Of a stretch of 64,000 nucleotides of DNA, positions 14,788 through 59,743 are shown piece by piece. The notes below the pieces were generated by a model. It searched no databases and had not been told where the DNA came from. It was given only the letters and a program-made list of their open reading frames with translations. Positions within the stretch are counted from its first letter, which is position 1, and every line of letters starts with the position of its first letter. The translations under genes and the position numbers were made by a program. Source of the DNA: an uncultured Verrucomicrobiae bacterium (GTDB lineage: Bacteria > Verrucomicrobiota > Verrucomicrobiia > Limisphaerales > UBA11358); contig CAVUVT010000002.1 of the NCBI GenBank assembly GCA_963744965.1, forward strand, positions 79,440 through 143,439. The letters run 5' to 3'.

Positions 14788-14790
14788 AAA

Positions 14791-42081: not shown

Positions 42082-42146
42082 CCAGTAGCGGCAAAAATCA
42101 ACGCCGCAAATGTAAGCATCAAAGCTGGTTTTCATCCGCGGACGCA

Positions 42147-42374: not shown

Positions 42375-42719
42375 AATTTGCTTTTTTGGTTGCGTCGCTG
42401 ATTCATTCAACGACACCGCTATTTTATCAGGCGCACTTTTGCTGAATTGAAAATTTGGCGACTGAAGCCTTACAAACATTGAACGAAACCACTGTCGCCG
42501 CCGACACTTGACACAAAAGCGCGCTGATTTCACGCGGGGCGACTTGGCCGGTTTTCAACTTCGACGCCATTTTCATTCAATGTTTGCAGGGCAAAAAATA
42601 GTTTGAGATTTTTTTCCATCGGTGCGGACGGCAGACGCGCCGGGTGAGATCAGACCGGCGAAAAAGCGATAGCCGTGATGAACCGGCACTTTTTATCATT
42701 GTCCAAGTGAAACGACTTT

Positions 42720-43355
42720 TCACCGGCGCGTAATGAGCCGCTTTGCGAACATTCCAATTTTTCGCGCCATGCGGGTGAATGGGCTGAATTGCCCATTGCG
42801 CCGCCGGGCCTCAAGCGGATTTTGGAATTGCGGATTGTTATTAAAAGCATCGAGAGAATTTGTTTTCTTCGCTTCCTCTGGAAAAAGCGAGTCCATCGGA
42901 ATCTGCAAGGCTTTGGCAACGAGAACCAAATCGTAATCTTTTACACGAGTGCGCCGCGTTTCAAGATTGGCAATGATTTCGCGCGTCATGGGCGCGCCCA
43001 TCGTTCGGATGACCCCGGCCAGTTTGCTTTGACTCCATTTTTGGTTGCGTCGGAACGTCTGAATCTGCTGGCCGGTCAAATTTCTAATTTTCGCCCCTGA
43101 CAGCGCGAGGCTGGATTCCGACTTCCCGCCGATGGGCGGAAGCAGGTCAGTGATGTCAGCCTTGAGAATATGGGCGATGACGGGAATGAAACGCGCGGGC
43201 ACGTCCGCAATACCGACTTCGTATCTCGCCAACTGACAGCGTGAGACGGGAAATCCCTTTTGCTGACAGGCGGCGGCAAGAGACTTTTGTGTCCAGTGGC
43301 GTGACTGGCGCAGCGCGCGAAGGCGAAATCCGACTTTGGAAAGAGTTCGTTTCAT
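42720..43355 (-). CDS. Tandem double-XRE HTH regulator
   Basis: Two HTH units: WTQKSLAA..LARYE and WSQSKLAG..IIANLE. Confidence 0.8.
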   Translation of the reverse strand: MKRTLSKVGFRLRALRQSRHWTQKSLAAACQQKGFPVSRCQLARYEVGIADVPARFIPVIAHILKADITDLLPPIGGKSESSLALSGAKIRNLTGQQIQTFRRNQKWSQSKLAGVIRTMGAPMTREIIANLETRRTRVKDYDLVLVAKALQIPMDSLFPEEAKKTNSLDAFNNNPQFQNPLEARRRNGQFSPFTRMARKIGMFAKRLITRR

Positions 43356-43365
43356 AGTCAGAGGG

Positions 43366-44826
43366 TCAGAATAATTTGCGCCACAAGGAGAACCATTTGG
43401 CGACTTGCCCATTGGCTTCCAACGGCGGGAGCGTTATCCGTCGAAATCCCTTTTCACAATGCACCAGCACACATTCATGGTCGCGGAGCGTGCGAAGCTG
43501 ATACGGCTTGATTTTGTGTTCTTCGGCCTCGGAATAATTGACGTTGCGCCTTCCGGCACTTGATCCCCACGACCGTTTGATGACGCGCTTTTTGCCGAGA
43601 AAATCCGCAGCTTGGACTGCATCAGCTTCATCGGCGGAACGAAAAATCATCCGGTTGCGGAGATTCAGCGTCAGCACTTTTGATTTGTCCGCACCAAGTG
43701 GGGGCACAAGCGACGTGGTGGACTGCGCGGCGGCAACGATGGTGGCGCCCGCCTCGCGGATCACGTCCACGCAGTTGTAATCGCTGGTGCCGTCCTCGCT
43801 CGCCGTCATAAACCGCTGCGCTTCATCCGCCCACAGGATGAGCAAATTGTTTTTTCCGCGCTGGCTCTTGGCCTGGTCGAACCGGCGCAAGGCGTGATTG
43901 TAAAAGAGCAATTTCAAAAATGTGTTCACATAACGCCGCTCGGTCTGAAATTTTTGCGGCATGGTCACGAGGATGATTTTGCCCTTATCAATTTCCGAAA
44001 AATCGAATGTGCTTTCTTCGACGCAGAAAATTTCCGCCACTTCGGGCGTCAGGAAGTATTGCAGATAATTCCCAATGGTTTCGCGGACGCCGCCAAGCTG
44101 CTCTGCCGGCTGGTCGAGGAAACGATGCTTGAAATGAAAATTCAGGGCATAGCGGCGTGGTGTCTGCAAAGGGAGCTTGTTCAAAAATTCCAATTCCTCG
44201 TCCAGCTTCGGCTTGCTGGAAAGCACATCCAATGCCCCGGATAGCGTTACTGGCCGTGACAATTCGGCGAGTAATTCCAACGCATATGCGATGTGCGTCT
44301 GCGCCTGATTTTTGAAAAAACCTTTGTCCCCGCCCTGGCCGAGACTGGTAGCCGTGTCCACCACGAATTTTGCATACGTCGTGAACGGGATGCTGCGGTC
44401 GCCGGTGAGATTGAACCGATGCAACGATTGTCCGGCTTGGCCGTCGGAATGAATTTTCAAATGAATCAAATCGGTTTCGCGTTCGTAGTGTCGCGCCATT
44501 GCCGAAAGCGTTTCCCAATAGACACCTTTTTCGTCAATGCACAGGCCGCCCCATTTGTCCTCGTTTTGAAACACCTGATGCGCCAGTTGATTGATGCCGG
44601 AAGTGGTTTTGCCGGAGCCGGTGTCGCCGGTGATGAGCCAGCCGCGACAAAATTGATTGCGTTTCCAAGTCAGGCCGCCAAGTCGGGCGACATGGCGATT
44701 GCATAGCAGCAAAAGCCGCCCAGTAATGATTACCAGCAAAAGGGCATATCCAAGCGCGAAGCCGCGCAGCGATTTAGACAACGCTGGAAGATGAAATGTG
44801 GAAAATGGGATAAAATCGAGTTTCAT
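43366..44826 (-). CDS. Type IV coupling protein (VirD4/TraD-like)
   Basis: N-terminal TM, GDTGSGKT, WADEAQRF, AAQS. Confidence 0.85.
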   Translation of the reverse strand: MKLDFIPFSTFHLPALSKSLRGFALGYALLLVIITGRLLLLCNRHVARLGGLTWKRNQFCRGWLITGDTGSGKTTSGINQLAHQVFQNEDKWGGLCIDEKGVYWETLSAMARHYERETDLIHLKIHSDGQAGQSLHRFNLTGDRSIPFTTYAKFVVDTATSLGQGGDKGFFKNQAQTHIAYALELLAELSRPVTLSGALDVLSSKPKLDEELEFLNKLPLQTPRRYALNFHFKHRFLDQPAEQLGGVRETIGNYLQYFLTPEVAEIFCVEESTFDFSEIDKGKIILVTMPQKFQTERRYVNTFLKLLFYNHALRRFDQAKSQRGKNNLLILWADEAQRFMTASEDGTSDYNCVDVIREAGATIVAAAQSTTSLVPPLGADKSKVLTLNLRNRMIFRSADEADAVQAADFLGKKRVIKRSWGSSAGRRNVNYSEAEEHKIKPYQLRTLRDHECVLVHCEKGFRRITLPPLEANGQVAKWFSLWRKLF

Positions 44827-45158
44827 AAAAACTTTCCGATGAGAAAACCGGCGATGGCGGCGGCGAAGACGGCACAAATGGCGGTTGGCAACTCCACCGC
44901 CCGAATTTCTTTCAATGCCCGTTCCTTCAAAATCTTTGTGGCTTCGGTCAAAGCCGCGATGTCTTTTTCAAATTCATCGAGCGATGGCATTTGCCGGTGA
45001 CGTATTTCATCCCAATGGTTTTGGTGAATCCGAAACAAATCCAGCAATAATAAAATCGGGTCATCATCCTTGATTTTGAACTGCTCCTTCCATTTGGCGA
45101 TGGCCTGCAAAAAATCCTCGTCAAAGTCGGGCGGTGTTGGTTGGTCGGGTGCGCTCAT
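44823..45158 (-). CDS. IncP TraM-like protein
   Basis: DDDPILLL motif, C-terminal TM; follows the TraL-like gene. Confidence 0.5.
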   Translation of the reverse strand: MSAPDQPTPPDFDEDFLQAIAKWKEQFKIKDDDPILLLLDLFRIHQNHWDEIRHRQMPSLDEFEKDIAALTEATKILKERALKEIRAVELPTAICAVFAAAIAGFLIGKFL

Positions 45159-45856
45159 GATTTTGCCGGCAACAATAATTCGGCGACGGATTCAATTTCA
45201 GCGTAAAATTTGCGCTGCCACGTTTGCAGCCGCTGGCGGTCCAGTAAATGCAGATGGCCGTCGGCCACGGCGGGCGTGATGGTGAGATTGTTGTGGCTCA
45301 ATTCCTCCACCAGCCAGGGCTGCAATTTGCTCATGGTGATTTCCTTCGCGCCGAGTTCCCTTAACAGCCGCTTGCGGATGACGGAATGGTCAAAAACGGC
45401 AAAATCATTGCTGTGAACCGTGTTTCGCAGCACAACGTAGGCGCAGACGTTTTTGAGTTTGTCGGTAATGCGATTAAGCTGGTCAATGCTGTCGGACTCC
45501 TGATTGACGGGCATGACGAGCGTGAGTGCGGCGGACAGGTCTTTTAGCGTTGGCTGCAAGGCAATCTCGTCGAAATAATTGAAAAACACTTCGGTGGACG
45601 CGGCGCGGCAGTCCACCACGACGAGATCGGTTTTTTCCAGTGCGCGAATCATGGCGTCCAGGCCGCGCGGATGGGACAAATCCAAAAACTGCACATCGTC
45701 GCCGTGAAAGCGTTTCAACGTGGAATTTTCGTTGTCGCAGTCGCAGGCGACAAATTTGATGTTCTTGTCTTTGAGGTATTGGACGAAATTGACGGCAAAG
45801 AAACTTTTGCCGACACCGCCCTTGCCGTTAAAAATCAAATCGAGGCGTTTGTTCAT
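45155..45856 (-). CDS. TraL/ParA-MinD-like ATPase
   Basis: GKGGVGKS deviant Walker A; DCDNEN. Confidence 0.8.
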   Translation of the reverse strand: MNKRLDLIFNGKGGVGKSFFAVNFVQYLKDKNIKFVACDCDNENSTLKRFHGDDVQFLDLSHPRGLDAMIRALEKTDLVVVDCRAASTEVFFNYFDEIALQPTLKDLSAALTLVMPVNQESDSIDQLNRITDKLKNVCAYVVLRNTVHSNDFAVFDHSVIRKRLLRELGAKEITMSKLQPWLVEELSHNNLTITPAVADGHLHLLDRQRLQTWQRKFYAEIESVAELLLPAKS

Positions 45857-46308
45857 ATTGTTTCTCCGGGTGGAAGCATTTCAACTTTGGCGATGCGCGG
45901 CCCGCGCGACGCGAACGCCGAAGTTTCGGCTGGCATGGTTGTTGGTTTGCTGGTTGTGGCCGGCGCGGGCGGCAACTTGGTTTTGGCCGAAGCATCCGGC
46001 GTGGTTTTTGGCGAAGCAGGATGGTTGGCATGACGCGAAGCACGCCCCTTGGCGGATGACTTGTGAGCGAGCTTTTCTTTCAGAACGCGATGACAAAAGT
46101 TGGTGACGCAGGTGTCCGAGGCGGGGATGCCGCTTTGGGTGAGCAGTTCACCGATGGCGCGATAGGAAATGCCGCGTTTGCGAAGCGCGGCGATGTCATC
46201 TTTGAGTGTCAATAGACGCGAAGCACGCGACTTGGCAGTGTGCGTGTATTGTGACGCGGCAGCGCGGAAGCGATCCAACGCTTCTGGTGGGATGGCATTT
46301 CGGTTCAT
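45853..46308 (-). CDS. TraK/StbA-like relaxosome accessory DNA-binding protein
   Basis: LKDDIAALRKRGISYRAIGELL helix-turn-helix plus low-complexity tail. Confidence 0.55.
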   Translation of the reverse strand: MNRNAIPPEALDRFRAAASQYTHTAKSRASRLLTLKDDIAALRKRGISYRAIGELLTQSGIPASDTCVTNFCHRVLKEKLAHKSSAKGRASRHANHPASPKTTPDASAKTKLPPAPATTSKPTTMPAETSAFASRGPRIAKVEMLPPGETI

Positions 46309-46314
46309 GGGCAA

Positions 46315-46500
46315 CGAAGCATGAGCGAGGCGACAGGGTTGGCGGCAAGCGAAGCAGTTGGCGAGGCACTTGACGAAGCAACCGGGCGGTTATGATGCGA
46401 AGCACGAATGTGCGCGCATTTGGTGGCGGCTGACACCGCATTGGCGTGGCAGTGCGCGAAGCGCAGATTCCTTCCTCTTGGAAGGGGTAGGGCGTGCCTT
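46315..46500. other. Candidate oriT region
   Basis: Non-coding; seven CGA(A/G)GC repeats, two hairpins, TAGGGCGTGCC; upstream of traKLM-like genes. Confidence 0.45.
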
Positions 46501-46516
46501 GTTAAAAAATTCATTT

Positions 46517-47023
46517 TCATACTGATTGCGTCACTACTTGCTGCTTCCGCTGTTGGAGCAATTCATCCCGCCAGTTTTGCAACTGCATGGCGACTTTTTC
46601 GATGTGGCTCGTTTGTTCGATGGTTCGGGCTTCAATCTGCTCGGCATATTGGTCGCCCAATTCGGTGTTTGGCAGTTGTCTCACGGAGTGCGCTGCCTGG
46701 TCATTGAGTCGTTGGTCGAGCACCTTCAAAACTTCGATGGCGGTGCGTAATTCGGCGGTGGTTGGTTGCATGGTTATACGGGGTTGTTCCGGGGGCCGTG
46801 TTGCCGACTCCCGGATTGATTTGGTTTGTTCGGCGGTGAGGGGATGCGCCCAGGCGTCAGTCAGGCCAAGCCGGGTGGCGGCTTCCTCGGCGGCGATTTT
46901 TGTTGGTGCTGCAATAACCGCGCGCAACGGGTCGCCCATGACGCGGGCATATTCCCGGTCGGTGAAGTAAATTCCCCAGAGTTCTTCGCCAGACTTTGGC
47001 GTCGGCATTTCGATTACTTTCAT
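46517..47023 (-). CDS. Hypothetical protein
   Basis: ORF divergent from the relaxase. Confidence 0.65.
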   Translation of the reverse strand: MKVIEMPTPKSGEELWGIYFTDREYARVMGDPLRAVIAAPTKIAAEEAATRLGLTDAWAHPLTAEQTKSIRESATRPPEQPRITMQPTTAELRTAIEVLKVLDQRLNDQAAHSVRQLPNTELGDQYAEQIEARTIEQTSHIEKVAMQLQNWRDELLQQRKQQVVTQSV

Positions 47024-47052
47024 GCCTGCCAGTGAACCAGTTTCCGCCGGTT

Positions 47053-47077
47053 GCTTTGTTCCATTTTGGAACAAAAT
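47053..47077. promoter_or_regulatory. Palindromic operator, copy 2
   Basis: Identical to 16261-16285. Confidence 0.8.
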
Positions 47078-47107
47078 AAAACCGGCCTTTTGGCAGACTC
47101 ATTCCCG

Positions 47108-49918
47108 ATGGTCACGGCCAAGACGCAATACAATTTGAAGAACGCAAAGGAATACTTTGAGGAGCATCTTTGCGTGGGCGATTATTACGATGAAGGGCAG
47201 CGGGTGACGGGCCTGTGGTTCGGCGTGGGCGCGGAACGCCTGGGTTTGACCAGCAAGGTTGGCGCAGAAGCGTTTCTTGCCCTATGTGAGAACCGGCATC
47301 CGGCATCCGGCGAGACATTGACGCAACGGCTGAATACCACCCGGAAGGATGATGCCGGTGACAACACTGCCAATCGCCGGATTTTTTATGACTTCACGTT
47401 CTCGCCGCCAAAGTCGGTTTCGGTCGCGGCATTGGTCGGCGCAGATAACCGGATTTTGGAAGCGCACGCACAAGCCGTCCGTTCGGCGATGAAGGAATTT
47501 GAAGCCTTTGCCACAACGCGCGTGCGGGTCGGCAAGGCGAATTGTGACCGCTCCACCGGCAATTTTGTCGCCGCCACGTTCACACACGACACGTCCCGCG
47601 CATTAGACCCGCATTTGCATACTCACTGCATTATCTTCAACGCCACGTTTGATGCCGCCGAAAATCGTTGGAAGGCGCTGCAAAATTATGAACTTCTGCG
47701 GGCGCGGAAATTTGCCGAGAACGTCTATTACCACGAACTCGCCCGCAAGCTGCGCGGGTTCGGTTATGGGATTCACAACCTGGCGCGTGGGGATTTTCAA
47801 ATCGAGGGCATTTCGGATGACATTTGTGAACGCTTTTCCAAGCGGCATACGCAGATTGACGAGGCCATTAAAAAGTTGCTGGCCGAAAAGCCGGAATGCG
47901 TGGGTGGCGATTTGATGGACATGCGCGAGTTGACTGCTACGGCGGAGCGGGCGCGGAAGCAAAAGGAATTGAGCCATGACGAGCAACGGGCGTTATGGGA
48001 TGTGCAGTTGAGTGAAAGCGAGCGCGCCGCCTTGCGCGAGCTTCCGAAGCGTTTGGAAAAAGCCACTGGCAACCGGATGAGCGTGGGTGAGTCGGTGCAA
48101 TGGGCAGAGGATCATCTGTTTGACCGCAACTCGGTCGCGCTGGAATGCCAATTATGGCAGCAGGCATTGGAGCGAGGACGCGGAGAAAACTTCTCCGTGG
48201 ATGAACTCAAAGAGTTCACGCGCCAGCGTCCTTACATTCGCAATTCAGAACGTCCTGCCGAAGTGACGTTGCGGGAAGTGCTGTTGCGGGAGATGGAAAT
48301 TGTCCAGACCGTCAAGGACGGCGCGGGGAATTGCCGGCCACTGGTGGAACATTCCTACACGGCAGATCCAAAACTGGATGACGAGCAACGTCTGGCTTTA
48401 GATTCGCTGCTGCGCTCCACCAATGCGGTTTCGCTGTTCCGTGGCGGCGCGGGCACGGGCAAAAGTTTTGTCCTTGGCGAGCTGGTCGAGCAAGTCCGGC
48501 GATCCGGCAAAAACGTGATTGTCCTCGCACCACAACGCCAGCAAGTAGTGGCAATGGAGCAAGCGAAATTTCCGTCGCCGACGACGGTGACAAGTTTTTT
48601 GCTCAAGCGTGAGTTGGTCGAGGGTGCGGTAATCATCGTTGATGAGGCCGGGCAGATTGGCGGTCGTCAAATGGCTGAACTGCTCCGGTTGGCGCGGGAG
48701 CGAAATGCGCGGGTAATTTTGTCAGGTGACACGCGCCAGCACGGAGCGGTTGAAGCATCGGATGCGTTGCTGGCCATTGAACTGTATTCCGGCGTCAAGC
48801 CGGTCGAGCTTCACACGATTCGCCGCCAAGACCCGGCGCTTGGCCGCAGTAAAAAAGAAAGTTCCAAGATCAGGCAGTATCGCAAGGCCGTTGAGGTGGC
48901 GGCGGCGGGAAAGCTCGCCGAATCATTTGAGCGACTGGACAAAATGGGTGCGGTGGTTTCCTGCGGTTTGGGTGAACAGGCGGACAAGCTGGCCGATGAA
49001 TATGTCCGGCTGGCGGAAGAAAAGGCTTCCGCCGTGGTGGTGTCGCAAACCTGGGCGGAAGTGCATCGCGTCAATTCCAAGGTGCGTGATGGGCTTAAAG
49101 GAAAGGGATTGCTCGGTGCAAATGATGTCACCGTTCAAGCATTGGACAAAATGGATTTAACCAACGCGCAAAAGCGCGATAAACGATTTTATCCGCAAGA
49201 TGCGGTGATTGTGTTCAATCAGAAGGTGCGGCAAACCGAGCCGGGGAAGCGCGGGAAGTTGGCGGGCATCGTGAAGGCCGGTGTGCTGGTCGAGATTGAC
49301 GGCAAGTGCGTTACCGTGTCAAACAAGGTGCTGGATAAAATCACCGTCTGCCTGCCGCGTGAAATTCCGGTCGCGCAAGGCGATAAATTGCATCTCAAGG
49401 CCAATCGCAAGCTGGCCTCCGGCGCGCGCGTCACCAACGGCGAATTGGTCGCCGTCAAATCAGTTCACGCCAACGGAAACATTGAATTAACCGACGGCCG
49501 GGTTCTGGACAAAAGTTTCCGTGAATTTCTTCCCGGCTACGCCGTTACGTCCTACGGTTCACAGGGCAAGACGGTGGATTATGTTCTCTTTTCCGATTCC
49601 ACCATCAAGGCCGCAACCAACGCTCAACAATGGTATGTCACCATTTCGCGCGGGCGGCGTGGCGTCCGCATTTTCACGCCTGATAAGGAGCAGTTGCGCG
49701 AGAATCTGGCACGTTCCGGCCACAGGCCGTTGGCATTGGAATTTGCCGGCGGCTTGCGCCCGCTTACCCGCAATCCACTTTGGGACCGGCTGCATGGTTA
49801 TCTCCTGCGATTCAGCCAGCGCGCCGCCGACACGTTTTGCCGATTGAAACAATCCCGTCGTCATTCTCAACCAGGACAAAAACATGAACACCAAAACGCC
49901 CGAATGTTACACCACTGA
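47108..49918 (+). CDS. MOB_F (TrwC/TraI-like) relaxase-helicase
   Basis: DYY, DFTFSPPKSVS, HDTSRALDPHLHTH, GGAGTGKS, IVDEAG, SQGKTVD. Confidence 0.93.
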   Translation: MVTAKTQYNLKNAKEYFEEHLCVGDYYDEGQRVTGLWFGVGAERLGLTSKVGAEAFLALCENRHPASGETLTQRLNTTRKDDAGDNTANRRIFYDFTFSPPKSVSVAALVGADNRILEAHAQAVRSAMKEFEAFATTRVRVGKANCDRSTGNFVAATFTHDTSRALDPHLHTHCIIFNATFDAAENRWKALQNYELLRARKFAENVYYHELARKLRGFGYGIHNLARGDFQIEGISDDICERFSKRHTQIDEAIKKLLAEKPECVGGDLMDMRELTATAERARKQKELSHDEQRALWDVQLSESERAALRELPKRLEKATGNRMSVGESVQWAEDHLFDRNSVALECQLWQQALERGRGENFSVDELKEFTRQRPYIRNSERPAEVTLREVLLREMEIVQTVKDGAGNCRPLVEHSYTADPKLDDEQRLALDSLLRSTNAVSLFRGGAGTGKSFVLGELVEQVRRSGKNVIVLAPQRQQVVAMEQAKFPSPTTVTSFLLKRELVEGAVIIVDEAGQIGGRQMAELLRLARERNARVILSGDTRQHGAVEASDALLAIELYSGVKPVELHTIRRQDPALGRSKKESSKIRQYRKAVEVAAAGKLAESFERLDKMGAVVSCGLGEQADKLADEYVRLAEEKASAVVVSQTWAEVHRVNSKVRDGLKGKGLLGANDVTVQALDKMDLTNAQKRDKRFYPQDAVIVFNQKVRQTEPGKRGKLAGIVKAGVLVEIDGKCVTVSNKVLDKITVCLPREIPVAQGDKLHLKANRKLASGARVTNGELVAVKSVHANGNIELTDGRVLDKSFREFLPGYAVTSYGSQGKTVDYVLFSDSTIKAATNAQQWYVTISRGRRGVRIFTPDKEQLRENLARSGHRPLALEFAGGLRPLTRNPLWDRLHGYLLRFSQRAADTFCRLKQSRRHSQPGQKHEHQNARMLHH

Positions 49919-50237
49919 TTCACAGGCGCGTTGCTTGCGCGTTGAAATGACGGCAACCCGTTTGCTCGTGCTGCCGCTGGATCAATTCGTGTTTGCTGAA
50001 CTGGACAGCGATGGCAAGGAACAAAAACTGCGTCTGGTTTTTGCCACGCATGAAGTTTTGATTTCCGGTTACGCTTTACGGCGGATTGAAACGGCCATCT
50101 GTCGGCTGGAATTGTCCGGCCTGATGAAATTGCCGGAAAAATATCATGCGCTGATTGCCGAAAACCAGCCCAGGATTCGGGAAATCGTTGTCACAGAAAT
50201 CAAACCCGCTGGCCTACAAACACAGGGGCTTAATTGA
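49884..50237 (+). CDS. Hypothetical relaxase-associated protein
   Basis: Overlaps the relaxase 3' end. Confidence 0.7.
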   Translation: MNTKTPECYTTDSQARCLRVEMTATRLLVLPLDQFVFAELDSDGKEQKLRLVFATHEVLISGYALRRIETAICRLELSGLMKLPEKYHALIAENQPRIREIVVTEIKPAGLQTQGLN

Positions 50238-50326
50238 ACATCGCACTGAACGCCCGTTCCGAAAGCCGGAAGCGAAACGGAGCGGTTCGTGAGTCGGCGA
50301 ACGCGCACGCAGTAGAGAAGCATTAG

Positions 50327-50625
50327 CCCGGATTTCCCAGATTAACTTCAAAAGCCAATATTATTGACTTACAATGGAGCCGCATAAACAAAGGCTTTCA
50401 TCTATGTTAAAGCAACGAAAGACGGAAAATCCAATGGGTGCAGGCAAAAAGCAGGCTTTGCGGGTGACTTTTGATCGTCGTTTGAAGCTGGAGTTTTACG
50501 GTTCCAAGGTCACATCCGACGCCGGGTTATTAGCTTACAGGGAACTTGATGAGGCGCTGGGGCTGACCGACTTGGGAGAGCCGCCTGAAAAAACACGATT
50601 TAACCGTCAAAACCAGCATTATTAG
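50327..50625 (+). pseudogene. IS1380-family transposase 5' remnant with left end
   Basis: LRVTFDRRLKLEFYGSKVTSDAGLLAYRELDEALGL then truncated; CCCGGATTTCCCA upstream. Confidence 0.75.
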
Positions 50626-50756
50626 TGCCGTAAATGCAATGAAAAATTATTAGCCTATGAACTCTTAACATCGCTTTTCCGTTCGACCGTCCTGGAACTC
50701 CGATTCGGCATTCACAAACCAGAATTTTGCTCCGGCGGGTGGCATAACTATTGCGG

Positions 50757-51158
50757 CTATCCCACGGGGACATTTACAATCAACTGGCCTTGTTCGTTCG
50801 TATAGCTGGGAAGCCTCGGCAAATCATGTTTCGCCGGCCCCTGAGTCACAAGACCAGCCGGGTCGAAAGTCGAACCGTGACATTTGCAGTAAAATGAACA
50901 ATCCGGTTTAGCGGCAAGCTTGCATTTCCGATGTGTGCAAATGGCGGACAGGGCAAATAGTGTGTCGTCCCGGCGAATGATAAAAAATCCCGAGTCTCGA
51001 AAATTACTGTAAACCCCGTCGGCAACATAGTTGCTGGCTGACCCGGCATTGATAATTCGTTGCGCATGGGCAGCGGAAGTGCTCACATCGTTCACCGCCT
51101 GACAACCGGCAGCCAGGCCCGCAGTCAGAAGCAGAAATTGCCGCCGGTTTAGCTTCAT
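50757..51158 (-). CDS. Tat-exported Rieske [2Fe-2S] lipoprotein
   Basis: NRRQFL, LAAGC, CTHRKC, CKCHGS. Confidence 0.9.
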   Translation of the reverse strand: MKLNRRQFLLLTAGLAAGCQAVNDVSTSAAHAQRIINAGSASNYVADGVYSNFRDSGFFIIRRDDTLFALSAICTHRKCKLAAKPDCSFYCKCHGSTFDPAGLVTQGPAKHDLPRLPSYTNEQGQLIVNVPVG

Positions 51159-51176
51159 GAGTTATTGTTTCCGCTG

Positions 51177-52088
51177 TTAATATTCAAACACCAGACTCGT
51201 GAAAATGCCAGAGTGGACATCCGCCCGTGCGTTGCTGTTGACCGGGAACACCAATCCCAGCCCCAGCCGAGGCTGCACACGACCGATGGTTTTGAGATTA
51301 ACACGAAAGGCCGCATTTCCAAGCAGGCTGCTTTGTCCGGAGTTGTCGTGATTCATTGCTGTTTCGCCTTTCAATTCAAAAATGGGAATGAATTGTTGCA
51401 CGCCAGGCAATGGCAATTGACTGTGTGGAATGCTGTAGCCAAAGACAAAACCGTATTCAAATGTCTGCAAACCACCGTCCGCGCCACCGCCATAGAGGGT
51501 GGAATATCCAAAAAGGGACTGCATGGTGAAACGTTCACCCACTCTCAGATCATTGAAAATTTTCGGGACAACTTCGGTGTTTTTGCTCACCGCCGAGTTG
51601 ACGGGAATGCCGACTTCCAAGGCAACACCCAAGGTAGTGTCGAAAAATCCAGTGGTCGAAACGAATTGGTAAAATGGATGGCGTGCGCCCACCTCAATGT
51701 TGCCGATGCCCTGCGAAACTTGACCGGACGATGCATCGCGCTCGTATGGAACCTTCAATTCCAAAGTCATCAGGCCAAAACCTTTCTCCACCTCTGCCGA
51801 GGCGATGTCGTTGTGTTGACTGCCGGCTTCAGTGTGCAGCCAGTCCAAGCGGGCTTCATTGATTTCAAGACCGGAATCATCCACTAGAAACGGCTCCGGG
51901 AAGTTTCCCTCATTATACCAACTGCGATGGTCAAGCCCGTTGAAAAGTCCGTAGCGCGTGCCGGGCGTTACGGATGAATTTCCGGCCGCCGGGGCAACCG
52001 GATCATCCGCCAGGGCCGTGGTTTGAACCAAAGTGGCGACAGACATGATTTCCAAAACGGGTGTTAATATTTTCGTTTTCAAATTCAT
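51177..52088 (-). CDS. Outer-membrane beta-barrel-like protein
   Basis: Signal-like N-terminus, GIGNIEVG, C-terminal FEY. Confidence 0.65.
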   Translation of the reverse strand: MNLKTKILTPVLEIMSVATLVQTTALADDPVAPAAGNSSVTPGTRYGLFNGLDHRSWYNEGNFPEPFLVDDSGLEINEARLDWLHTEAGSQHNDIASAEVEKGFGLMTLELKVPYERDASSGQVSQGIGNIEVGARHPFYQFVSTTGFFDTTLGVALEVGIPVNSAVSKNTEVVPKIFNDLRVGERFTMQSLFGYSTLYGGGADGGLQTFEYGFVFGYSIPHSQLPLPGVQQFIPIFELKGETAMNHDNSGQSSLLGNAAFRVNLKTIGRVQPRLGLGLVFPVNSNARADVHSGIFTSLVFEY

Positions 52089-52329
52089 GGCGGTAAAATT
52101 AGCTGATGCTTGGAATTCTGCTTCCGGTCGGTTGCTATTTATTAGCGTTGGCTTGCACCGGACATTTCTTGCCATCACCATGACAGGATATTTGCTCACC
52201 GCCAGGAAAATGGCAGACTATTGCTGTGCCTCAATCTGCCAAACGGCAAATCGAAACCAGCAACGACGTAGAGATTAGCGTCGCGCCTGCGTTCACCGAA
52301 CGACCAGCTTGGCGCTCGGTTGGCGACGG

Positions 52330-52545
52330 CTGGCGGCATTTTCCGAAACCTTCCGGAGTAATTTGGTCTGCTTGGTATATCTGGTATGTCTTGCGCATTT
52401 CGGTGCGGACTTTTTCAATCTGCAGGTTATGCGCCTCAAGCCGATTCTTCTTGTCGGCAAGGTTCTGATTCGCGCATCTCAAGATGCGCTTCGATCTTTT
52501 CCTGGGACACGAAGAAATCATGCAACTTGTCGTGGAATGTTGCTA
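52330..52545 (-). pseudogene. Fragment resembling the coiled-coil region of a large serine recombinase
   Basis: FHDKLHDFFVSQEKIEAHL / ANQNLADKK..YQADQITPEGFG across a frameshift. Confidence 0.4.
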
Positions 52546-52606
52546 ATTGTTTTCAGGATTCAAAAGAACCACTTCAAAAATTTTCCGTTCTATGAGGCAT
52601 GAAAAT

Positions 52607-53089
52607 TTACTGGATTCTTGCGTGTATGCTGGCATCAACGGCGATTCTCAATATAATCGGCTTGGCGGTTCTGTGGAAACTTTTTGATCTGTTAGACGCT
52701 ACTTTCAAAGATATGAAGTCGCGGGTTTCCCTCCGGACTCCCCTTGTTGAGAACAATATCATAAAAAAACGTTCCTGTGACGGCGGCACCACCAAATCAA
52801 GCCAGACAGTGGAAGAAAAAGGCTCGGCTGAGTCCGTATAGACGCCGCTGTTCGGAGCAGTTTCTTGCCCGACTTTTATGCAAAGAGAACTGTCGTCTTT
52901 GACGTAAACAGCTTCCAATTTGATAGCGTAAGCTTCGTCATTATTTTTCAAAGTAACGGTGAGCCTTTGATGCGGCTGCAAGAAGTCACCCGGCTGCTGA
53001 CCACGAATGTCCAAAATTGGTTTACGAGAACGGCCTTTTCGGAAAAGGTTTATGAACAAACCTAACAGAGCTTCGATCAGGTCGCTCAT
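52607..53089 (-). CDS. Hypothetical protein
   Basis: 160-aa ORF 5 nt downstream of 53095-53484. Confidence 0.5.
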   Translation of the reverse strand: MSDLIEALLGLFINLFRKGRSRKPILDIRGQQPGDFLQPHQRLTVTLKNNDEAYAIKLEAVYVKDDSSLCIKVGQETAPNSGVYTDSAEPFSSTVWLDLVVPPSQERFFMILFSTRGVRRETRDFISLKVASNRSKSFHRTAKPIILRIAVDASIHARIQ

Positions 53090-53094
53090 TTAAA

Positions 53095-53484
53095 TCAGTT
53101 GGCGTACCCCACTTCACTCGCCCAGTTTTCCGCTCTTTGTGCGGCTTCTGCAAACGAAAGAATCGCGTAGTTCTGGGCAGCAGGTGCCGCGCTTTCAAAC
53201 CAAGCGGCGATTTTGTTAATTTTCTTCCAAACGGGAACACGATTTAATTGAGGTGGCCAAAAGACGTAAATCGGATACCCGGTCTGCAAAGCTTTTTCAG
53301 CCCACGCTGGCAAAGGGTTGGGCACATCTTCTAGCGGCAGTATTCCACGGTTGCGGGTGAACTCATCAAAATTTTGAACCATATCGGTGGCATCAGGATT
53401 ATCCCCCAAATTCAGGAGATATTCCTTGGGAACGGTCATTATCCAGAGTTGGCCTGCTGGATTGCTGACGTACGCCCAGTTCAT
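53095..53484 (-). CDS. Hypothetical protein
   Basis: ORF with protein-like composition. Confidence 0.55.
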   Translation of the reverse strand: MNWAYVSNPAGQLWIMTVPKEYLLNLGDNPDATDMVQNFDEFTRNRGILPLEDVPNPLPAWAEKALQTGYPIYVFWPPQLNRVPVWKKINKIAAWFESAAPAAQNYAILSFAEAAQRAENWASEVGYAN

Positions 53485-53547
53485 TTTCAATTCGCGGTCA
53501 CTCTCCACCCCGCTCGCCAGCGGCGGTTCGCTAAAGATTAGGCTGCC

Positions 53548-53700
53548 ATGTCACTGCCTGTTCGCCAAGCCATGCCGCAGGACATCAGGATTGTGACCGA
53601 CATTCTCCGGGAGGCCGCTCGCTGGTTAGAGCAGAGCCGTATGCCCACGTGGCAGGATGGTGTTTACGCCACCTGCCGCATCATGTTTTCGCCGCCGTAG
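53548..53700 (+). pseudogene. Truncated GNAT acetyltransferase N-terminus
   Basis: MSLPVRQAMPQDIRIVTDILREAARWLEQSRMPTW; similarity ends at the neighbouring gene. Confidence 0.5.
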
Positions 53701-53957
53701 GGATTCGGCGTGCGCAGAGCGCATTGCGGGTCGTCGCGCCATTCGCCGTCCACGAGGAATCGGTAGTGGTGCGTGCCCGGTTCTATTTCCACAGTTATCT
53801 GCCACACGCCGTCCGCGCCTTTTTGCAAATTGATGGGACGCTCCTGCCACTGCGTAAAATCACCCACCAACTGCACGCTCACCGCGCCGGGCGCGGAGAA
53901 CGCAAAGGCTTGTTTTTGACCACGACCGCCATTACTTGAGTTCGTTTTTTTTGCCAT
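53664..53957 (-). CDS. Glycogen-binding CBM48 / AMPK-beta-like protein
   Basis: APGAVSVQLVGDFTQW..G.W..YRFLVDGEW..DP..NPYG. Confidence 0.85.
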   Translation of the reverse strand: MAKKTNSSNGGRGQKQAFAFSAPGAVSVQLVGDFTQWQERPINLQKGADGVWQITVEIEPGTHHYRFLVDGEWRDDPQCALRTPNPYGGENMMRQVA

Positions 53958-54412
53958 AACTTTTTCCCCTTTCTTTTGTTTTCTTTCCAAGGGCTGAAAA
54001 ACTTGAAGCCCTGAAGTGACGCCAAATACAACCGTCGGGTTAAGATTAACGACCATGCAACCGGCGCAGCAAGATTATTCGTTGATGACATCACGTTACA
54101 GGCGGCACGAGCGGCCTAATTTGAAAACGGCATCCTGAATTCTTCCGGCTTTTCCCGGAGTGAACACTTGCCGGTAATATACGAAAAGACGGGAAGGTTT
54201 CTCCCGATGTGGTGTTCAGTTGCTTGATAGGGTTCGGGGTCTTCATGGTGTTTGTCTGGCATTTCAACTTTGCTAAGGTTTACAGTGCCCCCCAGCAAAC
54301 GCCAGCAATGGCAGCAGGATTGACAGATAAGACTCCAGCCATTGAGGATTTGCCAAACTGGAACGGCTAAAAAAACTTGTCTCTGTGCGATGGTTGCCCA
54401 CAATAGCCAAAC

Positions 54413-54685
54413 ATGAAGCTGCCAGAAGATGGGGTGAGGGACACGCTTGGGCGCATGGCCGACAAGCTGGTTGAACTTGGATATGCAGACAGGGTGATTT
54501 TGGAAGATGCCCCGAAAGTAATCACCGTTTTCTGGACAGATTCAGGAAGGGTTTTGCAGCGGGATATTGGAAATATTTTTGACGGAGTCAGGAAAGGCGA
54601 GGAAATCAACGCACTTGATATTCAGATACTCTTGGCACTTTTCTTCAAAACTAATAGCGGCGAAAATCCCGGCAACAGGGACTGA
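54413..54685 (+). CDS. Hypothetical protein
   Basis: 90-aa ORF. Confidence 0.5.
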   Translation: MKLPEDGVRDTLGRMADKLVELGYADRVILEDAPKVITVFWTDSGRVLQRDIGNIFDGVRKGEEINALDIQILLALFFKTNSGENPGNRD

Positions 54686-54816
54686 GGTACGGCAACATGC
54701 ACAGGTACGATGTGTAATACGGACTCAGCCGTGCGATCTTTCATATTTCGGGAGCTAAAATAGTGGCTAAAAACACCACCCGTTCATGCTTTTGATAAGC
54801 ATGAATTGTTTGTAGG

Positions 54817-55158
54817 TTGAATGCCGTGAAAGATAAATTTGATTATCTATACCGGCTGAAATTAGAAATCGAGCGATTGCATAAGCGCCCGGCCTGTTAT
54901 CTTCGCACCCATTGGGTTGATGTAACCGTCCTTGGGGAAACAGGGTTGGTCGGAGACAAAACAGCATGGGTTGGAGACGTTGAGGTTTTTGCCCTCACAA
55001 AACACCCCAAAGCCAAAATTTGCTACGCATGGAGCCGTCGCGAAGGAAAGAATGACGAAGGCGAACGGATTGTTGTCGTGTTGGAAATTCCGCCGGTGGA
55101 TTCTCCACAAGCGGCCGTCCGCGCCAGCATTGTTTCAGATTCAATAAAAGACCATTGA
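54817..55158 (+). CDS. Hypothetical protein
   Basis: W.G.VEVF..HP.A..CYAWS..VLEIPPVDSP..AVRASI; start uncertain. Confidence 0.6.
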   Translation: MNAVKDKFDYLYRLKLEIERLHKRPACYLRTHWVDVTVLGETGLVGDKTAWVGDVEVFALTKHPKAKICYAWSRREGKNDEGERIVVVLEIPPVDSPQAAVRASIVSDSIKDH

Positions 55159-55464
55159 AGCGTCGTACGCAACGCCGGCATTGCGGCAAAATAGGGCTTT
55201 ATTTCGGAACGAAATCTGCTACGATCCTTTCATCGCTGGTGTTTAGGGTAAGCGCAGCGGATACGCCAGGATGAACGGGTCGCCAGCGTCCCCCAAATAC
55301 CCGTCGTCCCCTTCTGAGCGCCGCGGTGGCCGGCGTTTTGTCCGTGGCCACCGATACCTGCATCGGCCAAAGGCTGAATTTCAACCGATTTCATCCACCG
55401 GCTCAATTTGTCATCAAACCGCGCGTTAGTCATGGCAGATTCAATTTGTTTTTGCCGAACTGAT

Positions 55465-55980
55465 CTATTTGTATTTTACAATTGCCTCATTGATGCTCAA
55501 AACGACTCGTTCAATGTAGGATTTGTTTTTGGAAGTGAGCGCATGGACTTCGCCTGCCGCACTCGAAAGATTAACGTGATACGAGGTTTTCGCAGTGACC
55601 ATCAAAAGAATTCCTCCAATGACCATTGCACCTCCAATGATATAAACGCCTATCGGCGCGGGAGCGTCGCTACGAATTGATATGAACCCGCCGAGCAATA
55701 AAAGCACGCCGAAGGCCAGAAGCAGAAGTGCTCCAAAAACTCGTGGCGGTGTGTATGTCATTTTGACAGATGTGATGTTTCGCAGTGCATAGGTCGTCCC
55801 TCCAACGATCACCCGTGTCGTGGTTACAGCCACAACATTATCGAAATAAATTCGTTCTTCCCTCGGTTGAACAGGCAGCGGCGGCGGCACAGGCCGCTGC
55901 TGCGGTGCGCCACAATGAGGGCAAGCAGCAGCCTCCGTGCTGACAGATTCGTTACATTCTTTGCATTTGATTAAGGCCAT
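55465..55980 (-). CDS. Zinc-ribbon + DUF6232-like membrane protein
   Basis: CKEC..CPHCG; VTTTRVIVGGTTYALRNITSV; 2 TMs. Confidence 0.75.
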   Translation of the reverse strand: MALIKCKECNESVSTEAAACPHCGAPQQRPVPPPLPVQPREERIYFDNVVAVTTTRVIVGGTTYALRNITSVKMTYTPPRVFGALLLLAFGVLLLLGGFISIRSDAPAPIGVYIIGGAMVIGGILLMVTAKTSYHVNLSSAAGEVHALTSKNKSYIERVVLSINEAIVKYK

Positions 55981-55995
55981 ATTTCAATCTGTTTC

Positions 55996-57423
55996 TTAAT
56001 TTTGTGTCGCGTCATTTATTTGGCAATCAGAAAGCAAATTACCAACCGGCAGTATCGCCCGCTGACGCGGGTCAGTATAGTAGCTTGCAGTCATTTGAAT
56101 GGTCGTGTGCCGCAATTGCGCGCTGCCGGCAAAAATGCCGTTTTGTTTGACGATGGCGTCTCCAAAAAGTTTTCGCAACTCATGAACTTTTTTGCGAGCC
56201 GTAATACCCTTTCCCGCAAGCCATTCAATCAACGTTCTCCAATGAGGTTCGCAACGGTAAAAATTATACTTGGTGCTGCTCTTCCATTCCATCGGACTAC
56301 GAATAACAAATTCATCAGTTGAATTGGTCAGGCTCAATAATTCCTTCATCATCGCCGAATCAACATAAACGACCCCGCATGAATCATGTTTTGGCTGACG
56401 GTATGAGGTTGATTCAATGCAAATCGAATTGTCGGCTGGTTGAAGCTGGTTGCGTAAAAGCGTGTCCGCCTCGGCCCGCCGCAATCCTGCGCAAAGGCAG
56501 AGAAGAAACAACTTGTATGCTTCTGGATGTTCAAGCCGCAACTCATCACGCGCGGCTTTCAGCAATCCGGCGTAAGTTACGCCTAGCGGCGCATGAAATT
56601 TCATCGAACCGTTTTTCTCGAATTTCAATGCCTCAAACCAATAGATTTCTCGTTCTCCCTTTTGACCATCTTTCACTTTGAACTTGGGGACGACAACCGA
56701 AAAGTTTGGCTGATTGATAATGTTGGCACTGAACAAACTTTTGCAATGTCGCAAAGCAGCATTAAACGAACGATTCACTTCCAGCCGCCGTTTTGGATCA
56801 ACGCCTGCGCGTGCCAAATAAGCGACTTTCCAATCTGCTGCTGCTGCTGGCGTGATGGTTCGCAGCGGCGTGGCCTCGACTTTTTGCAACCATGCAGAAT
56901 GTTTTCCGTGCTGATAGCTGTATTTAGATTTGTCTTTTGCAAGCCCACGGATTTGCGCTGTCAACATCCGAAAATACTGCGCGTATCTGTGAAAGGTTTT
57001 TGGCTTCAAATTGCTTACGCGCTCCACTTCTCTCAAAAATACACCGATTGTTGCCTCACCAGCCGGCGCAACTGGAGTTGACGGCGGCACGGGTTTGCCG
57101 AAATTAGCCAGAGTTGCATCCCATCCTTTGGCGACGAGAGAAAGATAAATGTCCCGCGCTTTGGTGGCAGCGTCCTCTTTGTTCGCGGTGTCCAGATCAA
57201 AACTTCGACGAATGCCACGGTATTTTATCCGCACCGACCATTCGCCGATTTCAAAATTTTGCCCGCGATAGGAATACGTCCGATGTTCGAGCCGGGCTTT
57301 CCAATAACCGACGTGGGTTTTCGGAAAATGCCGTTGAGATTGCTTGTCTGAAGTGAGGTCAGAATTCTTGGCCACTTCTTGGCCACTTTTTCTGTCGTGG
57401 GCAGTAGTAACGAGTTGTTCCAT
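55996..57423 (-). CDS. Tyrosine recombinase / integrase
   Basis: GLRRAE, HELRK, LRH, ASYY catalytic pattern; next to the tRNA half. Confidence 0.9.
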   Translation of the reverse strand: MEQLVTTAHDRKSGQEVAKNSDLTSDKQSQRHFPKTHVGYWKARLEHRTYSYRGQNFEIGEWSVRIKYRGIRRSFDLDTANKEDAATKARDIYLSLVAKGWDATLANFGKPVPPSTPVAPAGEATIGVFLREVERVSNLKPKTFHRYAQYFRMLTAQIRGLAKDKSKYSYQHGKHSAWLQKVEATPLRTITPAAAADWKVAYLARAGVDPKRRLEVNRSFNAALRHCKSLFSANIINQPNFSVVVPKFKVKDGQKGEREIYWFEALKFEKNGSMKFHAPLGVTYAGLLKAARDELRLEHPEAYKLFLLCLCAGLRRAEADTLLRNQLQPADNSICIESTSYRQPKHDSCGVVYVDSAMMKELLSLTNSTDEFVIRSPMEWKSSTKYNFYRCEPHWRTLIEWLAGKGITARKKVHELRKLFGDAIVKQNGIFAGSAQLRHTTIQMTASYYTDPRQRAILPVGNLLSDCQINDATQN

Positions 57424-57515
57424 AATACGAGCGTAACGCACATAATGTTGATTTCACGTTTGTTATGGCGACTTATTACGACTCGCTACTACTCTGGACG
57501 ACTGCATACATTTCA

Positions 57516-57554
57516 ATTATGAGTCGCCTGCTCTAACCACTGAGCTATGGGCCC
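57516..57554 (-). tRNA. 5' half only of tRNA-Ile2/Met(CAU); att junction
   Basis: GGGCCCATAGCTCAGTGGTTAGAGCAGGCGACTCATAAT, then no 3' anticodon stem or T-arm. Confidence 0.85.
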
Positions 57555-57612: not shown

Positions 57613-58641
57613 TTATTTTCCGGTCGCTGAATTCGCCGCATTGCGTTCCTGTAACGATCTTTGGAGATATTGGTCCTCCGGGGCCTCGAGCCAGGCGGTG
57701 TACCAGATATCGCCCAGCATCTGGCCGGCCTTGACGAGCTGGCCGTCGAGGAACGCACGGCCCTCCAGACCCTTGTCTCCTTCGCCGGTAAGTTTGCCTT
57801 CCTTCTCCAGTTCATAAAGCGGCCCGACCAGTTTGTTTTGCTCAACGATGTAGCTCACGGCATCACGGAACATGCCGTCCGGCTGATCCGCATTCTTGAT
57901 GCGCTCGGCGGGATGAATTTTCCCCGCCAAGTTTGTGACGTCTATGCCACCGATCTGACGAAAATACCCGCCGTCAATCCACGCGTGAAATTTCAGGCTG
58001 GTCGTATAACCGTGCGGATTGTCGCCCATCCAGCCGTTGAAATGCATCGTCGTATGCAGCGGCTGTGAACCGTCACCAACGAAATGCCCCATCACGCCCA
58101 TGACATAGACGACATTGGCCTGCGCGTTGGCGATCTCCTCCGGCGTGCCGCCGTATTTTTGAAACGTTTTCAGGTAACTGAAGCAGGATTTCAGTTTTTC
58201 GTAATATTCCGTGATGGCCCACGGGAGGAAACCGCTCAATTCGCGCGTGTGATCGGCGTCCTTGGCTGGATCAATGGGCGGAAATTTATCCGGGTGCGCC
58301 GCCCGCTCCCGCGCAATGATTGCGACAAAATCGTAACGCATCAACGGCAGCGTCTCCGGTGTCAGGCCGTAAAGTTTCAAGTCCTCCAAATCAATGTAAT
58401 GGTCCGGCCCGTTGAAATGTTTCAGCGGCAAATCGCCCATATTCCGCCAGCGGTCCGGTTCGCCCGCGAGGAACTCGATGCGATGCTTCAATGCCGGCGT
58501 CAACTTGAACCCGCCGAAATCCGCCGGCAACGACGCCAGCGCCAGTTCATTGATGGCGTGATGCCCCTCGTAATCCCACGCCCTGGCGTTCAGAGTCAAT
58601 GCTCCCAGCATTGCTGCCATTGTGAGTAATTTTTGGTACAT
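57613..58641 (-). CDS. S1/P1 nuclease / Zn phospholipase C-like secreted protein
   Basis: A|WDYEGH, PD.W, HYID, HFVGDGSQPLH, HAWID. Confidence 0.82.
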   Translation of the reverse strand: MYQKLLTMAAMLGALTLNARAWDYEGHHAINELALASLPADFGGFKLTPALKHRIEFLAGEPDRWRNMGDLPLKHFNGPDHYIDLEDLKLYGLTPETLPLMRYDFVAIIARERAAHPDKFPPIDPAKDADHTRELSGFLPWAITEYYEKLKSCFSYLKTFQKYGGTPEEIANAQANVVYVMGVMGHFVGDGSQPLHTTMHFNGWMGDNPHGYTTSLKFHAWIDGGYFRQIGGIDVTNLAGKIHPAERIKNADQPDGMFRDAVSYIVEQNKLVGPLYELEKEGKLTGEGDKGLEGRAFLDGQLVKAGQMLGDIWYTAWLEAPEDQYLQRSLQERNAANSATGK

Positions 58642-58750
58642 AATTGTATGCTTGATACGCTCAAGACTAACGGAATCTGCCGCCTTTGCAAAAAGAATTG
58701 GCTTGGGCGGGTAAAAATCGCGATCGCTGGCGGCGAACCGAAGATAGGCC

Positions 58751-58819
58751 CCTGGGAGCGCCGGCGTCTCGCCGGCCAGTTTCGTTGTCGTACGCCGGCG
58801 GGACATCGGCACTCCCAGG
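58751..58819. repeat. REP-like palindrome
   Basis: CCTGGGAGCGCCGGCGTCTCGCCGGC..GCCGGCGGGACATCGGCACTCCCAGG. Confidence 0.75.
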
Positions 58820-58879
58820 CCAAATTCACCTGATGACAAATTCGTGTTTATTTGTGTTCATTCGTGGTTAAATTTTCAC

Positions 58880-59743
58880 GTGAAAATCATCACTGACGAA
58901 CGCTGCGCCGCCTATTCCCATCCCGGCCATCCCGAACGCCCGCTGCGCATCCTCGCCACACTCGAACTCCTGCGCCACCAGACCGAATTGCCCATCGAAT
59001 GGGCCGAACCGGGCCAGGTGAGCGATGCACAAATCCTTCGCGCTCATCCGGCGGAACATCTCGCGCACTTGAACGAGCCGATGGATTTTGACGCCGACAC
59101 GCCGTTTTACGAAAACATCGCCGGTTTCGCCCGCGCCTCCGCTGCCGCCGCGCTCACCGCGCTGACCGCCGCGCGCAAGGGCGAAAGCGTTTTCAGTTTG
59201 ATGCGACCGCCCGGTCATCACGCCACCCGCGACCGGGCGATGGGCTTTTGTTACTTGAACAACATCGCCATCGCCGTGCTCGAAGCTGCCGCCACCGGCG
59301 CAAAGCGGGTCGCCGTTTTCGATTTCGACGTGCATCACGGCAACGGCACCGAAGCCATTCTGCTCGACCGGCCCGGCACCGCGTTTTTCTCCATCCACCT
59401 GTTTCCATGTTACCCTGGAACAGGCAGCGCGAATGTCGGAAAAAACTGTTTCAATTATCCCGTCGCGCCGGGCTTGCCGCGTCGGGACTACCGCGCCGCG
59501 CTTGAGCAGGCGCTGGACGATTTGAAAAAATTCCGGCCCGACCTCGTCGCCGTGTCCGCCGGGTTCGACGCCTACGTGCGCGATCCGCTGGTGCCGGGCG
59601 TGCTGGTGGTGGACGATTTTTACTGGCTCGGCCAGTCGCTGCGCGCGCTCGGCGTGCCCATGTTCAGCCTGCTGGAAGGCGGTTACAGCAAGGATTTGCC
59701 CGAACTCATCCTCGCCTACCTCAAAGGCGTGGAGGGAAAATAA
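58880..59743 (+). CDS. Histone deacetylase family protein
   Basis: HPERP, RPPGHHA, GFCYLNN, DFDVHHGNGT, SAGFD, LEGGY. Confidence 0.93.
   Translation: MKIITDERCAAYSHPGHPERPLRILATLELLRHQTELPIEWAEPGQVSDAQILRAHPAEHLAHLNEPMDFDADTPFYENIAGFARASAAAALTALTAARKGESVFSLMRPPGHHATRDRAMGFCYLNNIAIAVLEAAATGAKRVAVFDFDVHHGNGTEAILLDRPGTAFFSIHLFPCYPGTGSANVGKNCFNYPVAPGLPRRDYRAALEQALDDLKKFRPDLVAVSAGFDAYVRDPLVPGVLVVDDFYWLGQSLRALGVPMFSLLEGGYSKDLPELILAYLKGVEGK

Follow-up and report, generated by a model that had tools for sequence, protein, structure and literature searches.

The closest described parallel to the locus reported here is the tRNA-dependent lysogeny of actinobacteriophages, for which the work of Guerrero-Bustamante and Hatfull in 2024 is the defining paper (PMC10865867). 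Table 2 of that paper includes cases at tRNA-Ile2-CAT, those of the phages OneUp and Mollymur. In the excerpted text, the authors speculate that the phage-borne spare can itself become a target, and they call the evolutionary order relative to the systems that restore their target gene "not clear". A similar arrangement has been described for ICEs of the Pasteurellaceae, where an intact copy takes the place of the disrupted tRNA-Leu (PMC6028734, in part), and ICEHpa1 is described, in the portion of the text at hand, as flanked by one truncated and one intact tRNA-Leu (PMC7438473). The restoring rule for tRNA islands is set out in Islander, whose accessible text counts 159 of 3919 islands with a "5' fragment" (PMC4383910).

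The locus described here belongs to the same general class of events. We consider it probable, at roughly 0.8, that the tRNA fragment under study is the junction of a 58.9-kb ICE which splits tRNA-Ile2(CAU) in its anticodon loop, leaves the gene unrestored at both ends, and brings along a replacement tRNA-CAU that likely reads AUA. The window, by which we mean the whole stretch of 64,000 nt that was analysed, is G000:C2:79440-143439, with window position 1 at C2 79440; the assembly G000 comprises 3.73 Mb in 13 contigs and is 83% complete.

The two halves of the host tRNA gene

The features at and beside the two junctions are as follows.

Window 57516..57554, minus strand: host tRNA-Ile2(CAU), 5' half, forming the junction on the integrase side, with the anticodon loop at 57523..57517
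Window 57516..57527, minus strand: 12-bp identity block common to both junctions, containing the 7-bp anticodon-loop overlap
C2 78017-78065, minus strand: second core and, displaced, the 3' half of the host gene with T arm, acceptor 3' strand and CCA, from the genome scan and Rfam
Window 57613..59743: host flank, an unannotated gene on the minus strand, without a match in Pfam or NCBIfam, and an HDAC-domain gene on the plus strand (PF00850)

An earlier note on this DNA had recognized in the 39-nt piece the canonical 5' part of a tRNA-Ile2(CAU), followed by unrelated sequence toward the integrase. This is what is seen at 57554..57516 on the minus strand: the acceptor 5' strand, the D arm, the 5' strand of the anticodon stem, and the CTCATAA loop with one further base, and unrelated sequence thereafter. 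The note had found no T arm or 3' half in the window, which agrees with our analysis because ARAGORN calls no tRNA anywhere in its 64,000 nt. It had also advised looking to the left of the window for the matching half, and there the genome scan places it, at C2 78061..78017 on the same strand, 1.4 kb left of the window and 58.9 kb from the 5' half. The 39-mer has a single BLAST match in the 3.73-Mb genome, as does the 3' half, which is not expected by chance. When the two halves are rejoined in silico they give a 76-nt cloverleaf, and the intact gene that the relative G029 has at this locus is identical to it; the central claim of the note, that integration splits tRNA-Ile2, is thus borne out.

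Both junctions fall in the anticodon loop, and a tRNA is called at neither of them. The 12-bp block has exactly two occurrences in the genome, one per junction. An intact tRNA-CAU stands beside the host flank in 7 of the 29 relative loci fetched, and the misses among the 29 are uninformative because these loci reach only 1.5 kb past the match. A short-read contig of 348 nt from run X1, which was independently built and may come from the source sample, crosses window 57395-57742 with 0 differences; for the far junction, no outside record among the matches listed forms such a bridge.

The element between the halves

Window 1..57516, no strand: in-window part of the 58.9-kb ICE, which runs about 1.4 kb further left
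Window 55996..57423, minus strand: tyrosine integrase, 475 aa from the conserved ATG, with an open frame up to GTG 57441
Window 47051..49918, plus strand: TrwC-type relaxase/helicase (PF08751, E 1.7e-80)
Window 43366..44877, minus strand: type IV coupling protein (PF10412, PF12696)
Window 5962..14787, minus strand: T4SS gene block (PF03743, PF19044), with a TrbI/VirB10-like gene at 5962-7011 and a VirB4/TraG-like ATPase at 12064-14787
Window 1..4252, minus strand: SNF2/methylase-helicase, crossing the left edge of the window, with no other large gene between it and the far end
C2 78350-78538, minus strand: excisionase-like HTH gene of 62 aa (TIGR01764, E 2e-5, below the cut-off)
Window 57367..57388, minus strand: two direct repeats of 11 bp that lie 128 and 139 bp from the loop, overlap the first codons of the integrase and are likely its arm-type sites
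C2 78123-78144, minus strand: the arm-type repeat pair of the far end; the roughly 59 bp after it resemble a decayed antisense tRNA 3' half

By its gene content, with an integrase, a relaxase, a coupling protein and T4SS genes between the att ends, the element that lies between the tRNA halves is an ICE. It measures 58,893 bp between the cores, with a GC content of 53.1% compared with 56.7% in both flanks. The remaining ORFs of the T4SS block have no Pfam match, and the block is collinear with that of the G120 ICE at 81-83%. No virion family was found among the 20 element ORFs scanned, which are a subset of its ORFs.

The integrase ORF starts 74 bp past the 5' half, at GTG 57441; the ATG kept in relatives is that at 57423. 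The window's own integrase has no Pfam match at E 0.01 and no NCBIfam match, and PF00589 is matched by 19 of the 20 aligned members, with R315, K345, H414, R417, H439 and Y449 invariant in the alignment. Going by their titles, the records that contain homologous integrases come mostly from Verrucomicrobiota. Among viral contigs the integrases were all distant, with identities of no more than 35%, and a PDB sequence search returned nothing relevant. A fragment of a second integrase copy, 73% identical to the C-terminal 86 aa, was observed at G000:C5:57954-58211.

The 11-mer has 5 genomic copies, 4 of them being the pairs inside the two element ends; these repeats are likely the arm-type sites of the integrase. 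The xis-like gene is 87-89% identical in the sister elements of G026, G019 and G120. A restoring fragment of the Islander type is absent from the attP, where the far end has just the decayed antisense remnant. Neither an excised circle (attP) nor an empty site (attB) gave a joint in the contig sets of four runs, in which contigs drop rare forms; the single RNA run among those listed matched 0.05 of the words searched. The close sister elements sit in different genomes and flanks, which suggests past mobility of the ICE family.

There are several further observations on the content of the element. Its cargo at window 32361-38879 (minus strand) encodes a 2172-aa protein with Pfam matches to SpvB, FG-GAP and TcdB_toxin_midN and an RHS-like C-terminal part; the small ORFs after this gene, at window 30360-32360 (minus strand), may be immunity genes, and the cargo at 30360-38879 as a whole looks like a polymorphic toxin locus. 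It is missing from the stretch common to G120. A short ORF at window 50374-50625 (plus strand) presumably resembles the start of a transposase. A candidate hairpin between the 5' half and the integrase leader was rejected, being not above shuffles (z -1.0 and -1.4). ATA codons per 1000, counted in mechanical ORFs, amount to 4.4 in the element vs. 3.2, a slight excess that is not used as support.

The replacement tRNA

C2 78224-78300, minus strand: complete replacement tRNA-CAU (ARAGORN; Rfam 73 bits), with a promoter-like motif upstream

This spare sits 160 bp inside the far core, after the xis-like gene, and shares 56 of 77 positions with the host gene. The spare appears to be of the Ile2-type isotype: the pairs G3-C70, C4-G69 and C5-G68 are found in spare and host gene alike, and the same three pairs are given as marks of tRNA-Ile(CAT) in the excerpted text of PMC1635315. 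The remaining intact CAU gene of G000 has C3-G70 and is of the Met type. The sole intact Ile2-type gene in the 83%-complete assembly is therefore the spare inside the element. No credible UAU-reading tRNA was found in G000, the relaxed calls being spurious. A CAU-like member of a tRNA array on C5 was considered as an Ile2 reader and set aside as a Met-like probable pseudogene; the array itself, at G000:C5:802650-809250, holds about 20-30 same-strand tRNA genes, many of them degenerate.

An intact Ile2-type pattern is present in 141 of the 163 genomes of the genus, with exactly one match in 138 of these and two in the other 3. Counted from the listing, 46 of the 141 have the anticodon-stem type of the spare, and in G003 and G112 the only copy at the native locus is of that type. 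ATA codons are present in 1203 of 2071 long host ORFs. The gene tilS was found in 56 of the 61 genomes searched and not in G000; the initiator tRNA (fMet) is missing from G000 too, and because of these two absences the assembly must have gaps. A regex for the promoter-like motif before the spare matches 22 of 31 loci, and G000 and G091 have close variants of it; a promoter scan called nothing for either the host tRNA or the spare and is weak evidence either way.

On this evidence the host likely depends on the spare for reading AUA while the element is in place, because the Ile2 gene is usually single-copy, the only intact one lies in the element, and no credible UAU reader is seen. Two suggestions of the earlier note can be read in this light. 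One was that the tRNA is intact only after excision. This stands for the host gene, which is intact only in the empty site; it does not stand for the function, since the element brings its own complete tRNA-CAU and excision is not needed for AUA to be read. The other was that a separate intact copy would mark the split gene as a mere decayed fragment. A separate copy does exist; since it lies within the element, flanked by the xis-like gene and the arm sites, it speaks for replacement and against decay. We also considered whether the spare had been recoded to resist re-integration, and rejected it, as spare-type genes are split in G026 and occur as displaced 3' halves in L188 and L205, and in G139 a spare-context copy is split by another element.

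Sister elements and the reversed orientation

The integrases of G026, G019 and G120 are 78-79% identical to that of G000, and for 31.7 kb the G000 element runs collinear with that of G120, at 68-92% identity. The same spare near a xis-like gene, with the target unrestored, is found in G026, G019, G120, G184, G127, G119, G167 and G091; past the loop, the sister elements give at most about 13 matching bases. The genome of G120, which is 96% complete, has fMet, an elongator Met, the spare, the displaced 3' half and no other CAU gene. G026 has an intact host-type Ile2 copy besides that of its element, and one of its spare-type genes is itself split.

In one respect the G000 element is the opposite of its sisters: its integrase end joins the 5' half. 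In the sisters the far end joins the 5' half, and the integrase end joins the 3' half where it could be seen (G026, G019, G120, G184 and G167). The count of this arrangement started from 119 integrase loci, from which 17 duplicates, 7 loci without the N-terminus and 2 that were too short were removed, leaving 93. A tRNA 3' half lies antisense before int in 65 of the 93 (25 with the exact CAU loop), and a 5' half lies in sense in one, G000. The other 27 gave no regex call, and 9 of them are 3'-antisense by BLAST. The spacing from arms to loop is equal on both sides in G000 and in G026, G019 and G120, being 128 and 139 bp on the integrase side, where it is also matched in L167, L185 and L147; only the 7-bp loop reads the opposite way in G000 relative to the sisters. 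The anticodon stem of the target is almost palindromic. That the loop sets the direction of integration follows from the established chemistry of tyrosine recombinases, and here the 7-bp loop would do so alone because the stem around it is so nearly symmetric.

A pattern search for a second flipped case covered 163 genomes of the genus and 401 of the order and found none with this integrase family downstream. The pattern for a split 5' half, which by design misses about a quarter of split halves (G184 and G091 among them), matched in 16 of the 163 and 32 of the 401 genomes, many of these matches not being tRNA-like. In the order search, 30 of the 34 matches were fetched as loci, and the D-arm filter dropped L289, L290, L294, L298 and L299, which may be tRNA-like. 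The flip is thus seen in one genome, and of its two junctions only that on the integrase side is bridged by a listed outside contig. In titles and abstracts, a scope outside of which most subscription papers fall, the literature search found neither this element family nor a tRNA at which the overlap is reversed.

The same surveys turned up other arrangements around split tRNA genes. A second set of elements (L129, L130, L285, L286, L296, L302 and L305) leaves 5' halves of tRNA-Ile2 unrestored; its repeat pairs are different ones and lie about 130-150 bp inward of the junction. In L125, L135, L136 and L319 it is a Met-like tRNA-CAU whose 5' half is split off, and two of these halves lie within 1.4 kb in G021. 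At L315 (G554:C9:198005), a family integrase is directly followed by a tRNA-CAU with a different stem, which lies about 1.9 kb from a displaced 3' half and could be an independent replacement gene carried by a very small element. L148 has a displaced 3' half upstream of the integrase with the loop UAU instead of CAU, which is either drift or a tRNA-Ile(UAU) target. A subclade of the integrases, at about 65% identity, has no upstream tRNA piece (L137-L145, L149 and L151), and L137 and L144 are inverted copies on one contig.

Weighing the alternatives

The host could have another tRNA-Ile2, or a reader with UAU, in DNA that was not assembled, in which case the spare would be a passenger with no dependence upon it. 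The gaps of the 83%-complete assembly, from which tilS and the fMet tRNA are missing, leave room for such a gene, and additional copies do occur, as in G026 with its intact host-type copy and in the 3 of 141 genomes with two matches. However, the copy number is one in 138 of the 141, the gene that was split occupies the conserved native locus, and G120 at 96% has no other copy; in G000 itself there is no credible UAU tRNA, and the CAU-like sequence of the C5 array is the Met-like probable pseudogene. We therefore think a passenger role unlikely. It is also conceivable that the reversed orientation is an error of assembly and that the real element is placed like its sisters. A single example among 66 oriented loci invites this suspicion, and among the matches listed no record bridges the far junction. 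Yet the 348-nt contig of X1 spans the junction of 5' half and integrase with 0 differences, both junctions agree on one contig, and a usual repeat mis-join is unlikely because the ends share only 12 bp, which is too short; an error of this kind seems highly improbable.

The earlier note had proposed that a new 5' half and a promoter come from the far end, making a working chimeric tRNA under the control of the element. The far junction does fold in a cloverleaf-like form (z -5.2), its Rfam score lies just over the tRNA threshold (29.8 vs. 29 bits), and a conserved promoter-like motif can be discerned upstream by eye; the scan did not call it. The case does not hold up on closer inspection. ARAGORN is silent even when relaxed, and the 29.8-bit match covers model positions 10-63 only; an acceptor 5' strand of 7 bp is lacking at the canonical distance, and the fold closes only 4 acceptor pairs. 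Most of its stability is owed to the host 3' half and to the palindromic core, while the bases on the element side look like a decayed antisense 3' half, and a complete spare lies 160 bp away. A functional chimera at the far end is extremely improbable in our view.

A series of states and a possible mechanism

A maximum-likelihood tree of 40 chosen integrases, made in a quick version with SH-aLRT and no bootstrap, places G000 as sister to G120, G019 and G026 (SH-aLRT 99) and these four as sister to L167, L185, L147 and L146 (99). Around them, as read from sequence, the ICE family spans restoring, restoring-plus-spare, decayed-plus-spare, flipped and spare-only states. In G550, the genome of L167, a restored gene stands beside the arms and xis, with the displaced copy 128 kb away and no spare. 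In L147 the 3' half is complete and has the spacing at which decayed bases are seen in G000, G184 and others, and G553 has a restored gene plus a spare. At the other end of the series, G061 retains the spare and a broken xis-like gene, its arms, core and host halves being lost, and G006 has the spare only, with no host 3' half; in neither was a close integrase found. It is worth stressing that the series is put together from different genomes and that its steps are undated. The simplest order that we infer would run from restoring elements through the gain of the spare and decay of the 3' half to either the flip or erosion to the spare only.

Under such an order, the ancestral element would have carried a tRNA 3' half and restored the gene; it would then have acquired the spare, and the 3' half in the attP would have decayed afterwards. 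A rare recombination in reverse, with a mismatched overlap, could have left the loop flipped relative to the arms and been fixed by repair or by a second cycle. Such a recombination would no longer be lethal because nothing was left to restore, and it would be survivable only thanks to the spare. The flip could have originated in either an in-place inversion or a reversed re-integration. As a consequence, the host tRNA promoter is now predicted to read in sense toward int, and no minus-strand terminator is called between the 5' half and int. With the host gene split, a cell that lost the spare but did not excise the element precisely would be expected to die, so that the spare can outlast the element.

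A wider interpretation, which we offer tentatively and at somewhat below even odds, is that the spare acts as an entrenchment device that rewrites an essential gene across the genus: repair stops, backward integration is freed with int under the host tRNA promoter, and the spare is left as the sole reader of AUA when the element decays. If this interpretation is true, much of the spare-type allele, present in 46 of the 141 genomes, would have been delivered by ICEs. In G118, G068, G163, G126 and G152 the spare allele is at the native locus, in the native direction and with the element-type motif, which makes these either the donor lineage or a domesticated remnant; G069 and G183 keep 3'-half remnants beside a native-locus spare allele. 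At L019 (G004:C10, about 166800-167500), an intact tRNA-Ile2 lies amid two extra 5' fragments and one 3' fragment, a stack which looks like the scars of repeated integration.

Comparison with known systems

The likeness to the actinophage system is close: a tyrosine integrase, an attB in a host tRNA gene, a tRNA that is not reconstructed and an element-borne tRNA of the same isotype are common to both, and the core of 12 bp in the G000 ICE compares with 8-17 bp in the actinophages (PMC10865867). However, the carrier in G000 is an ICE, which works like the phage system and is not a member of it, and its spare lies 160 bp from the core beside a xis-like gene, unlike what the excerpted text describes for the phages. 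The dependence was established by experiment in the actinophages, whereas for the G000 ICE it is inferred from the genomes, and the reversal of the overlap relative to sister elements seen in G000 is unreported for actinophages in the same text. The ICEs of the Pasteurellaceae differ in the tRNA, the host phylum and the ICE family, and the portion of that paper at hand reports no orientation variant or test of dependence (PMC6028734).

With the anticodon-centred class of Islander, the locus shares a crossover in the anticodon loop and a displaced tRNA fragment that marks the end of the element. The sister-family elements of G550, G554 and L147 are of the canonical restoring kind, whereas the G000 element restores nothing (PMC4383910). 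A layout of the G000 type, with a 5' fragment upstream of a full tRNA on the same strand, would, to judge from the accessible text of that paper, likely pass the Islander filters as a "5' fragment" island, masking its true layout. Island finders that assume a restored tRNA will misread such elements.

The findings bear on the order of events that was left unclear for the phages, as the state series favours a spare gained first and repair lost later, an order that is now testable. The 7-bp reversal offers a natural example of a tyrosine integrase switching direction on a symmetric tRNA target once the selection for rebuilding is lifted, and it may be that an essential tRNA allele spreads by ICE. 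The strategy of splitting a tRNA gene and replacing it is, as far as the excerpted sources go, known from actinophages, including cases at Ile2, and from the ICEs of the Pasteurellaceae; what is new here is the host group, the reversed overlap and the series of states.
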